Part shown: positions 2,144 to 3,380 of the stretch, in pieces
How the letters are laid out: each line of letters opens with the position of its first letter
How positions within the stretch are numbered: the stretch's first letter is position 1
Virus genome (UHGV): UHGV-1280364
From: a virus
Length of the DNA stretch: 18,393 nucleotides
Strand: one strand, 5' to 3'
The notes under the pieces: generated by a model
Databases searched by the model: none
What the model saw: the letters and a program-made list of their open reading frames with translations, nothing else
Told to the model about the DNA's origin: nothing
Program-made: the position numbers and the translations under genes

Positions 2144-2743
2144 GTGATTGAGATAGGCGTTATGGCCATCCTGAATCAAGAGCCAGGAAAAATTGAAAAC
2201 GTTTTTTCTGACATATCAACATCTATCGAGCGTTCAATTTCAGACTTTGATCGCAGTCATAGCGGCTCTTTGTCTAAAAAACAGGCTTCTGAAGCTCTTA
2301 GCAAGATCTACTGCGTTATGTCACCTGTAGAGGAAGTTTGCAAAAAGTACATTACATTCATTGACATATTAAGTAATGGTACGGAAGAAGATATTTCCTC
2401 ACTTGATATTCAACATGACGATGTAGATATGTTGAACGATCAAATATCTAAGCTTGATTATGGTATCGCGAAACTGTTGTATACCTTCTTCATCGCTGAG
2501 AACAGCGATGCGTGGAAGCCCCATATGTCAACTCTTACAACAATGAAAAACCACTCAATAAATACTTTTATAGAATACAAAAGGCTAACTATGGGGCTTG
2601 TGACGCTAGCAATGCAGCACATACCACTATCATATGCTGAACCTGAAGAGTTCACTGAAGAAGAGTTGGCTTCATTCAAGAAATCAGTTGAAGATTCACA
2701 TAAAAGATTTGGCATGGAAGCACCAAAATGGAAAACCGCATAA
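2144..2743 (+). CDS. Hypothetical acidic protein (199 aa), candidate partner or antitoxin of the downstream YafO-like gene
   Basis: Complete ORF 42 nt downstream of mnt in AT-rich DNA. GTG start at 2144 with AAGG upstream; alternative ATG at 2162. Its stop overlaps the start of the next gene (ATGGAAAACCGCATAA). No family recognised. Confidence 0.55.
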   Translation: MIEIGVMAILNQEPGKIENVFSDISTSIERSISDFDRSHSGSLSKKQASEALSKIYCVMSPVEEVCKKYITFIDILSNGTEEDISSLDIQHDDVDMLNDQISKLDYGIAKLLYTFFIAENSDAWKPHMSTLTTMKNHSINTFIEYKRLTMGLVTLAMQHIPLSYAEPEEFTEEELASFKKSVEDSHKRFGMEAPKWKTA

Positions 2744-2820
2744 GCATTGTTGTAGATGCAGCGGCTGGACCATTAGAACAATACTTTGCTTATGCGGTTT
2801 TTCATTGTTGTAAGAGTTGA
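2728..2820 (+). pseudogene. Truncated 5' copy of the YafO-like gene (30 codons, ends in junction sequence)
   Basis: ATG at 2728 encodes MENRISIVVDAAAGPLEQYFA, identical to the first 21 residues of the complete ORF at 2961, then diverges into the junction and terminates at 2820. Confidence 0.6.
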
Positions 2821-2823
2821 CAT

Positions 2824-2976
2824 ATGGGGCTGGTGACGCTAGCAATGCAGCACATACCACTATCATATGCTGAACCTGAAGAGTTCACTGAAGAAGAGTT
2901 GGCTTCATTCAAGAAATCAGTTGAAGATTCACATAAAAGATTTGGCATGGAAGCACCAAAATGGAAAACCGCATAA
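2824..2976 (+). CDS. Duplicated mini-ORF encoding the C-terminal 50 residues of the 199-aa protein (possibly expressed fragment)
   Basis: The second repeat copy starts exactly at an ATG, giving MGLVTLAMQHIPLSYAEPEEFTEEELASFKKSVEDSHKRFGMEAPKWKTA. It keeps the same 16-nt overlap with the downstream gene start as the full-length ORF. No obvious ribosome-binding site, and below the ORF-track length cutoff. Confidence 0.3.
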   Translation: MGLVTLAMQHIPLSYAEPEEFTEEELASFKKSVEDSHKRFGMEAPKWKTA

Positions 2977-3380
2977 GCATTGTTGTAGATGCAGCGGCTG
3001 GACCATTAGAACAATACTTTGCGAAGGCTCTTGCAAACTACAAAAACAGAGGCACCGTTTCAGTTTATCTTGGTAAGATTGGTGGGTTTGAGAGAAACCA
3101 TCACGCCGTCTTATCGGGAATTTACAAGTCGCACATCAGGATCCCTGGAGTAGATGACCCTTGGTTAAAAACAACGCCAATACATCGTAGAGTTAGCGAT
3201 AACTTTTTGATATTTGCGGTACACAACACATATCCAATTCATATCCAGATCATTGCTATCATTAAACCTGATGGTCATGAGAAGGTAAAAAAACTATTGC
3301 CAGCCATCATTGATATAACTGAAAAAAGATTCCAATCTCTAAATGAGAGGGAGCTTAACTCGTTGATTTCATACAAATAA
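2961..3380 (+). CDS. YafO-like toxin candidate (139 aa; putative ribosome-dependent mRNA interferase family)
   Basis: The C-terminal half (NFLIFAVHNTYPIHIQIIAIIKPDGHEKVKKLLPAIIDITEKRF) resembles the E. coli YafO C-terminus as I recall it (...HLVYCQGAFDEQAWLLIAILKPEPHKLARD...KMAEAFRMRF). Start overlaps the stop of the upstream ORF. Based on recalled similarity only, not a search. Confidence 0.5.
   Translation: MENRISIVVDAAAGPLEQYFAKALANYKNRGTVSVYLGKIGGFERNHHAVLSGIYKSHIRIPGVDDPWLKTTPIHRRVSDNFLIFAVHNTYPIHIQIIAIIKPDGHEKVKKLLPAIIDITEKRFQSLNERELNSLISYK

Follow-up and report, generated by a model that had tools for sequence, protein, structure and literature searches.

A YafO-family toxin gene and a helical partner with an exchangeable C-terminal tail: a putative toxin–antitoxin module in a P22-like prophage region

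Gene Content of the Locus

The virus genome UHGV-1280364 carries, on its plus strand, a cassette of two genes encoding a homologue of the YafO-family toxins and an upstream partner, ORF199, a putative antitoxin. The stretch of DNA analysed, 18,393 nucleotides (nt) in length and referred to below as the window, comprises the immI region and virion genes of a P22-like (Lederbergvirus) element. Its nearest phage is Escherichia coli K1 phage CUS-3, and its nearest matches are prophages of avian pathogenic (APEC) and uropathogenic (UPEC) E. coli. ORF199 (2144–2743, 600 nt) begins with GTG and encodes 199 amino acids (aa); the toxin gene (2961–3380, 420 nt) begins with ATG and encodes 139 aa. Both open reading frames (ORFs) had been named in a preliminary description of the sequence and were found to be real.

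That description also held that the two genes overlap by four codons and are translationally coupled. In the window, however, the end of ORF199 (2743) and the start of the toxin gene (2961) are 217 nt apart, with a 233-nt insertion (2790–3022) between the genes; a repeat search and alignment to relatives showed this insertion to be unique to the window. Without it, the sequence aligns colinearly with that of E. coli APEC E19035 and differs from it at 7 of 1658 nt. In this strain and in CUS-3, the coding sequences of 600 nt and 420 nt overlap by 16 nt (ATGGAAAACCGCATAA), that is, by five codons and one base. The insertion had apparently been overlooked, since the span 2144–3380 measures 1237 nt, whereas two genes overlapping by 16 nt need just 1004 nt.

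The YafO-Family Toxin

The 139-aa protein matches the Pfam family YafO_toxin (PF13957) with an E-value of 2.2e-11 and 44.2 bits, the gathering cut-off being 25; its residues 26–122 align with model positions 2–98 of 101 (97 positions). In a comparison with YafO of E. coli K-12, hhalign gave a probability of 90% using five sequences and of 95.4% (E 1.9e-8, 98 columns) using 17 sequences. The earlier assignment to YafO, which had been based on similarity of the C-terminal half, is therefore upheld, and the E. coli orthologue has already been named ‘YafO family toxin’ by PGAP. Judged by its sequence, the protein is a distant member of the YafO family and not an orthologue of the K-12 protein.

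The toxin homologue is basic (pI 9.6). Its conserved residues include H58, R77, S79–D80, H88, Q96, P103 and H106, and the predicted secondary structure consists of a strand, a helix, four strands and further helices, an order that is compatible with the BECR fold but not diagnostic of it. A word-indexed protein search returned nine close relatives. YafO of K-12 is an mRNA endonuclease that blocks translation, and toxicity and RNase activity may be expected of the 139-aa protein as well. The PF_YafO family has been classed among the BECR-fold mRNA-degrading toxins of the RelE/ParE superfamily, with the gene order antitoxin then toxin (PMC11980606).

The ORF199 Partner Protein

The protein encoded upstream is acidic, as had been noted, with a pI of 4.9 and a net charge of −12; the pair is thus asymmetric in charge (pI 4.9 versus 9.6). 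The GTG start is backed by the first six residues, which are conserved in homologues down to 27% identity. Residues 1–40 hold a conserved IERSISDFDRSH motif, and residues 45–157 are predicted to form a helical bundle in which W124 is invariant and H127 nearly invariant (W-x-P-H motif). The AlphaFold2 model, with a predicted local distance difference test score (pLDDT) of 77 and a predicted template modelling score (pTM) of 0.64, contains long helices at 45–78, 91–119 and 125–157, a low-confidence linker at 158–171 and a C-terminal helix at 172–188.

The protein matches no family in Pfam or NCBIfam and corresponds to PHROG 18235, annotated as ‘unknown function’. Its dissimilarity to YafN, remarked on in the preliminary description, is borne out by the hhalign probability of 1.8% against K-12 YafN. 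A search of PADLOC-DB v2.0.0 returned no match for the toxin and no credible match for ORF199; a weak partial match of the latter to PtuB (E 0.005, 14.5 bits) was discounted.

The ORF199 family is small. A word-indexed search covering 5.8 billion proteins yielded 16 clusters (90% identity), and a profile search against 1.84 billion representatives yielded 18 (50% identity); the family is represented in E. coli, Salmonella, Pectobacterium, Xenorhabdus/Photorhabdus-like genomes and metagenomes. No account of the family was found in the literature and family libraries examined; its genes have been public since the CUS-3 and UTI89 sequences, with the partner labelled ‘hypothetical’. One database product (P0015) is 112 aa long and has 10 NCBI member sequences; if real, it would place an intact toxin beside a broken full-length partner.

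Conserved Pairing and Co-Divergence

The 16-nt overlap of the two genes is found in E. coli, CUS-3 and Pectobacterium, and the spacing in distant pairs ranges from −10 to +6 nt. The surroundings of the pair are diverse. It follows mnt in the window and at locus L003, and stands directly after a cI-type S24 repressor, a rexAB-like position, at L007 and L029. At L008 and L011 its neighbours are tail or baseplate genes; at L012 it is found in a PirA neighbourhood and at L014 near a transposase. Several Pectobacterium species possess a stand-alone pair with the same overlap between an ABC transporter gene and gcvP (L004–L006).

Upstream of the stand-alone Pectobacterium pair, a promoter-like sequence TTGCTG-N16-TAGAAT is present (L004:5950–5990), which was not flagged by a simple scan. 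The putative −10 element is surrounded by a 7-nt inverted repeat, TATCATT…AATGATA, that could be an operator for autoregulation.

Deeper sampling was obtained by scanning IMG/VR with a YafO-like profile, which added 13 loci with 28–44% toxin identity. At all 13, the ORF immediately upstream is 182–211 aa long. Compared with the ORF199 profile, nine of these upstream ORFs have E-values between 1e-53 and 1e-10, one has 0.003 and three have 0.13; none contains a Pfam domain. Most of them keep the C-terminal tail motif described below, and those of L047–L050 have a variant tail. Among 12 pairs, the pairwise identities of partner and toxin are closely correlated (r = 0.91, Mantel p ≤ 2e-4). The pair is a mobile two-gene unit conserved across unrelated genomic contexts.

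Exchangeable Tails and a Second Downstream Family

The C-terminal tail of ORF199, termed tail A (residues ~166–199, EEFTEEELASFKKSVEDSHKRFGMEAPKWKTA; 2639..2743, plus strand), is proposed to be a linear toxin-neutralising element. It consists of helix 172–188 followed by the motif S-H-K-R-x-G-x-x-x-P-x-W, where P194 is nearly invariant and W196 invariant; the consensus is …FKKSVEDSHKRFGMExPxW-COOH. Other members of the family carry a different tail, tail B, with the consensus …F-x-[FY]-D-L-x(12)-P-[ED]-W-V-x-S-G-[DE]-[DE]-F-V-K-W-[IL]…. Tail A always precedes a YafO-like gene (six lineages and the 13 IMG/VR loci, counting the variant tail of L047–L050), and tail B always precedes a gene of a second family (125–130 aa in five lineages, with four further IMG/VR loci, L055–L058), with no exception.

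Similarity of the core does not track tail type. Proteins with tail B are 26–32% identical to ORF199 and possess the N-terminal IERSISDFDRSH motif, whereas distant tail-A proteins are just 19–23% identical to it and do not contain this motif. Since core and tail types are decoupled, the modules must have been shuffled. All 11 comparisons among tail-A pairs show higher conservation in the tail than in the core, for example 66% versus 17% (L007) and 44% versus 16%, and tail identity tracks toxin identity. The partners at L051 and L052 keep the tail motif on a barely recognisable core.

Proteins of the second downstream family are 120–133 aa in size and have the invariant motifs LPGRNK (LPGRNKPS) and H-Y-H (mostly LWHYH); representative genes are located at L003:2065–2457, L008:2333–2716, L011:1034–1411 and L028:889–1266. 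The family comprises at least 91 clusters (P0041–P0131), all annotated ‘hypothetical’, from Enterobacterales, Neisseria, Pasteurellaceae, Aeromonas and phages, and has no Pfam match. The possibility that it is a diverged YafO was considered and set aside: hhalign gave a probability of 1% between the two families (17 versus 89 sequences) and of 0.3% against K-12 YafO, and Pfam returned nothing. By eye, the second family and the YafO-like toxins have a K-x-H…S/T-x-F-hhh…P-x-H pattern in common.

In most sampled loci, the upstream partner of the second family is either an antitoxin of 179–208 aa with a Panacea domain (PF13274, E 1e-16 to 1e-21) or a protein of 52–67 aa that is little more than a tail; the tail-B motif is present in most of these partners. 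An initial test of tail B against a single PanA protein was suggestive (hmmsearch E 0.15 among 1,615 decoys; hhalign E 0.0019), and the similarity became convincing as more PanA partners were sampled. A hidden Markov model built from ORF199-family tails only finds most of the Panacea and short partners with E-values from 4.5e-8 to 3e-3; the short proteins L082 and L083 stayed below significance with this model. The Panacea/SocA domain was detected by Pfam in neither ORF199 nor any family member scanned, and the hhalign alignment between the ORF199 family and PanA is restricted to the C-terminal 46 columns. By this comparison, the same tail has three chassis, namely the ORF199 core, the Panacea domain or, in the short proteins, none, and the second downstream family looks like an undescribed family of PanT-type toxins.

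For PanA antitoxins, experiments have shown that neutralisation is linear and resides in exchangeable elements joined to a domain of accessory or sensory kind; Panacea can be accessory, possibly sensory, and an isolated, stabilised C-terminal element suffices to neutralise (PMC10440598). The shared tail B, together with this logic, points to the tail of ORF199 as the probable neutraliser and to its core as a Panacea-like carrier that is not a Panacea homologue.

Rearrangement of the Cassette in the Window

The 233-nt insertion is composed of two parts. The 5′ part (2790–2822) is a 33-nt junction of inverted local sequence, in which the reverse complement of 2526–2552 is joined at AAAACC to the GCATAA of 2738–2743. 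The 3′ part is a second copy of 2590–2789 with one mismatch (2599T/2832G). Correspondingly, the repeat search returned a direct repeat of 200 nt (2590–2789/2823–3022) and a perfect inverted repeat of 36 nt (2517–2552/2796–2831). The insertion has three joins with microhomologies of 3, 6 and 10 nt, the longest being the inverted repeat 2516–2525/2590–2599 (AAGCCCCATA/TATGGGGCTT), and it can be read as the product of three template switches.

The rearrangement in the window leaves ORF199 and the toxin ORF intact, with two short plus-strand ORFs between them. The first (2728–2820, 30 aa) is a truncated toxin stub in which the first 21 YafO-like codons run into junction sequence; its 16-nt overlap with the end of ORF199 is retained, and it is a remnant of the rearrangement. 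The second (2824–2976, 50 aa) is a tail-only copy, identical to ORF199 residues 150–199. Its first codon is that of the internal Met150, AAGAG lies 7 nt before this codon, and the ORF has a 16-nt overlap with the beginning of the toxin gene. The rearrangement thus uncouples the full-length partner from the toxin, and the tail-only ORF takes the coupled position. If the tail is indeed the neutralising element, this ORF would encode exactly the fragment predicted to neutralise the toxin. Contigs in which the 50-aa ORF is called as a gene were considered as evidence of the duplication and rejected, most of them being homopolymer frameshifts or contig ends.

Among 5,426 complete E. coli genomes, 44 have the cassette and none has the insertion, and its junction patterns were not found in 20 related loci, IMG/VR, GTDB genomes or JGI metagenomes. 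Only the inverted-to-direct junction was encountered again, at the 5′ end of one Logan contig (L018:1–30, SRR4292310), where the same inverted junction as at 2803–2831 is joined to the start of the duplicated segment, with T in place of G2832. This contig is 99.95% identical to CUS-3 and comes from another sample and another lineage than the window. The 10-nt inverted repeat appears to be a recurrent site of fold-back or template switching, either in vivo or in library preparation. A further contig (L019:1, ERR11473115) begins exactly at the duplication boundary.

The window contains two other duplications, both perfect and in tandem. One, of 347 nt (16845–17191 repeated at 17192–17538; 4-nt junction microhomology CTCA), is situated in the large terminase gene and splits it into two overlapping ORFs of 377 aa (16055–17188) and 238 aa (17101–17817), each with Terminase_3 ATPase-domain sequence; as the sequence is written, the large terminase is broken. 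The other, of 290 nt (15633–15922 repeated at 15923–16212; 3-nt microhomology TGT), covers the portal start and the terminase end; as at the toxin locus, the repeat straddles a gene junction, so that the ORFs flanking it are both intact. Both duplications are absent from all relatives, whose corresponding stretch is shorter by 637 nt.

With three local duplications in 18 kb, the sequence may represent a defective or rearrangement-prone copy, or contain chimeras of amplification or assembly. There is a nearly even chance that the locus is not a working module in this copy and that the insertion and duplications represent chimeras or prophage decay, in which case the separated arrangement and the tail-only ORF would be without biological meaning. 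This explanation agrees with the absence of the insertion from the 44 cassette-bearing E. coli genomes, the IMG/VR relatives and three public collections, with the two further duplications and the split terminase, and with the position of the inverted junction at a 10-nt inverted repeat, where in vitro fold-back priming is possible; the terminal position of the same junction in an unrelated Logan contig is in line with it as well. However, all three joins have microhomology (3–10 nt), as would be expected if DNA templates had really been switched, whether in vivo or in vitro, and not of careless contig joining. ORF199 and the toxin ORF have both been preserved, and the junction was seen again in an independent sample that contains another phage lineage (99.95% CUS-3 type). 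The explanation also bears only on the state of this copy and not on the identity of the module.

Immunity Region and Neighbouring Genes

The region upstream of the cassette contains, on the minus strand, ant (340–1341; domains P22_AR_N and P22_AR_C), an 89-aa ORF (1338–1607) and arc (1604–1825). The 89-aa ORF overlaps each of its neighbours by 4 nt (ATGA), has a hydrophobic N-terminal segment and no Pfam match, and is annotated ‘hypothetical’ in E. coli; P22 is not known to carry a gene at this position. The sar antisense RNA (Rfam RF00262, 90 bits) is encoded on the plus strand at 1276–1343 and was the sole match in an Rfam scan of the window, with none at the toxin locus. A consensus scan found two overlapping, divergent promoter-like sites, a Pant-like site on the minus strand (1830–1802, TTGACA-17-TATATT) and a plus-strand site upstream of mnt (1797..1825, TTGAGA-17-TATCAT), which is likely Pmnt. 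With the sar RNA and these sites, the immI region is a complete one of the P22 type.

The mnt gene (1853..2101, plus strand, 82 aa) was identified from its Pfam matches (Arc, E 1.1e-27; Repressor_Mnt, E 5.5e-15) and from the CUS-3 and E. coli annotation. Its product contains an Arc-like ribbon–helix–helix (RHH) domain and the Mnt C-terminal domain. Mnt is the repressor of ant and maintains lysogeny. The cassette begins 43 nt downstream of mnt on the same strand; the consensus scan found no promoter-like or terminator-like site in the interval between mnt and ORF199, and the Pmnt-like site is the sole candidate promoter upstream of the cassette within the window.

Downstream of the toxin gene lies an hkcB-like ORF (3403–3732, plus strand, 109 aa) with a strong Shine–Dalgarno sequence, AAGGAGG; its product has a transmembrane-like segment at the N-terminus and is coiled-coil in its C-terminal part. 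This ORF is common to phage HK620, for which no toxin-pair match was found, and it is missing beside the stand-alone Pectobacterium pair; it is therefore regarded as a separate accessory gene and not as a third component of the module. The ejection-protein genes 16, 20 and 7 follow on the minus strand. Compared over 3611–4750, the gene 16 allele is ~95.6% identical to the CUS-3 type and ~83% identical to that of APEC E19035, whereas the adjoining toxin cassette is 98.4–99.6% identical to both records, which indicates a mosaic boundary right at the cassette end. In P22-like prophages, sieA is situated between genes 16 and 9 and is expressed from the prophage; it is carried by just 22 of 66 P22-like phages (PMC10883804).

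Proposed Mechanism, Role and Alternatives

The cassette is probably a two-gene module resembling type II toxin–antitoxin systems, in which ORF199 would be a helical carrier with an exchangeable neutralising C-terminal tail. An antitoxin role of ORF199 is favoured by the conserved pairing, the co-divergence, the switching of the tail with the downstream gene family and the sharing of the tail with Panacea antitoxins. The antitoxin-like nature of the partner, proposed in the preliminary description, thus gains support from comparative genomics; the toxin–immunity or abortive-infection pair also named there is a further possible reading.

The cassette would represent a lysogen-expressed accessory gene (‘moron’) of a CUS-3/P22-like prophage, located in the mnt–gene 16 slot, which in P22 is the sieA slot. 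The pair is probably transcribed together with mnt from Pmnt and would therefore be on in lysogens. The downstream gene would encode a YafO-like toxin of the RelE/ParE (BECR-fold) superfamily. ORF199 is proposed to consist of an all-helical carrier of ~150 residues with no recognised DNA-binding domain, a flexible linker and a tail of ~35 residues, where the tail (helix and SHKRFGMExPxW) may bind and neutralise the toxin physically. The carrier would then not be the neutraliser; by analogy with Panacea, it could determine stability or respond to a trigger, for instance an infecting phage. The pair might serve the prophage as a stabiliser, or provide abortive infection or exclusion; such a role in phage defence or prophage retention is plausible, to judge by the genomic positions of the pair.

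Several observations weigh against this proposal. The toxin is ~20% identical to K-12 YafO over 83–98 aligned columns and scores 14.2 bits against the NCBIfam YafO equivalog NF007377, the cut-off being 153, so its activity may differ from that of the K-12 protein. Its AlphaFold model, built from an alignment of eight sequences, is of low quality (pLDDT 40, pTM 0.29), and a search by sequence found no solved structure for the toxin; the same search returned none for ORF199 or the second downstream family. Of the fold and profile comparisons that had been suggested earlier, the one between the toxin and YafO was positive, whereas fold searches with ORF199 returned generic helical bundles only. 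Pfam detects no helix–turn–helix (HTH), RHH or AbrB domain in ORF199, an unusual lack for a classical type II antitoxin, and neither protein of the pair is represented in PADLOC, so that the argument for a defence role comes from genomic position only. Truncated or frameshifted ORF199 products exist in databases (P0015, P0022–P0024; Logan L015, L016, L017 and L020); the two frameshifted cases inspected show single-base losses in A-runs (A5→A4, A4→A3) and have the appearance of sequencing errors in homopolymers. A partner that serves as a cofactor and not as an inhibitor would also be compatible with the conserved pairing and the co-divergence.

This last point leads to a two-component effector, in which ORF199 would be a sensor, adaptor or activator of a YafO-like nuclease that is inactive alone or otherwise checked. 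The large size of ORF199, its lack of a DNA-binding domain and its conserved N-terminal IERSISDFDRSH motif of unassigned role would suit such an arrangement, as would prophage positions typical of defence genes (PMC10883804) and the sensory role proposed for Panacea (PMC10440598); pairing and co-divergence do not separate an activator from an inhibitor. Nevertheless, the occurrence of tail B as a free protein of 52–67 aa and on Panacea antitoxins is the pattern of a neutralising peptide and not of a sensor, and the upstream position, the gene overlap and the acidic/basic pairing are the classical signature of an antitoxin. The effector arrangement is improbable, and the roles are not exclusive, as the carrier could sense while the tail neutralises. 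That ORF199 is an unrelated accessory gene travelling beside an orphan toxin, whose true antidote is a small RNA or host YafN encoded elsewhere, is hardly credible: a prophage YafO of Pectobacterium parmentieri was indeed treated as an orphan with no YafN nearby (PMC6192338), and ORF199 has no known domain, but the pairing is kept down to 23–27% toxin identity, including non-phage chromosomal sites with no other conserved neighbour, the tail type switches with the toxin type, and no Rfam family was found at the locus, the sar RNA being the sole match in the window.

A bolder extension of the carrier-and-tail proposal can be put forward only tentatively and is rather unlikely to hold in full. 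According to this extension, the ORF199 core would be a second, independently evolved carrier or sensor scaffold functionally equivalent to Panacea, which holds different toxins (YafO-like and the LPGRNK/WHYH family) by means of plug-in C-terminal tails and lets them go when it senses an infecting phage; the cassette would be an unrecognised prophage abortive-infection system in the sieA/rexAB slots, and the allele in the window a natural experiment with a tail-only mini-antitoxin.

If the 199-aa family is the cognate partner, the prophage YafO modules now annotated as orphans would be completed. PGAP calls the gene next to the prophage YafO toxin ‘hypothetical’, and the authors of a Pectobacterium genome paper sought a YafN on a plasmid for a prophage YafO (PMC6192338). 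No paper linking YafO with NetFlax was found in the literature, and neither YafO nor PF13957 is mentioned in the searched portions of the supplements to two Panacea papers. The proposal would also add an antitoxin scaffold that is absent from Pfam, NCBIfam, PADLOC and the function-assigned PHROGs, and would provide, besides Panacea, a second example of a design in which a carrier is joined to a neutralising tail that can be exchanged. Of greatest interest is the putative neutralising tail shared by Panacea, the ORF199 core and stand-alone mini-proteins; a tail on three chassis offers a clean system for asking what a carrier domain does. The cassette occupies the classical superinfection-exclusion slots of P22-like and lambdoid prophages in pathogenic E. 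coli K1 (CUS-3, UTI89, APEC), so that a contribution to phage resistance or to keeping the prophage can be tested directly in these lineages.

Comparison with Known Systems

The cassette resembles YafN–YafO of E. coli K-12 in the toxin family (PF13957), the adjacency of the genes, the order antitoxin then toxin and the combination of an acidic upstream protein with a basic toxin. The partners differ: ORF199 has 199 aa and is predicted to be all-helical, whereas YafN has 97 aa and is Phd/YefM-like. The settings also differ, the present cassette being located in a prophage accessory slot and yafNO of K-12 in the SOS-regulated dinB operon (dinB-yafNOP).

SieA is an inner-membrane protein that blocks DNA injection. 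The cassette shares no detected sequence relationship with sieA or rexAB, and both of its proteins appear to be soluble, one of them being a toxin homologue. Its positions are nonetheless like those of P22 sieA and lambda rexAB, either in the gene 16–mnt/gene 9 slot or after cI (L007, L029), which are lysogen-expressed positions (PMC10883804).

In contrast to Phd of the Phd–Doc system, the N-terminal part of ORF199 does not have a Phd/YefM, RHH or HTH fold, and autoregulation is not evident. The proposed folding of a C-terminal helix or peptide onto the toxin would, however, be common to ORF199, Phd and similar type II antitoxins. The isolated Phd-C element, when stabilised by SUMO, neutralises its toxin alone (PMC10440598).

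PanA–PanT offers a parallel in terms of function. Unlike PanA, ORF199 contains no Panacea domain, and its model is a long helical bundle without the β-strands of Panacea (PMC10440598); its family is also rare (18 clusters) and has two known toxin partners, and so cannot be called ‘hyperpromiscuous’. As in PanA–PanT, a globular domain of ~110–150 residues is combined with an exchangeable linear element (PMC8832971, PMC10440598), which for ORF199 is proposed to be neutralising as well. Both systems are frequent in prophages, and the ORF199 family shares tail B with PanA antitoxins of the same toxin family. In both, one carrier is paired with toxins that are unrelated in sequence, a resemblance in the way of working and not in family membership.

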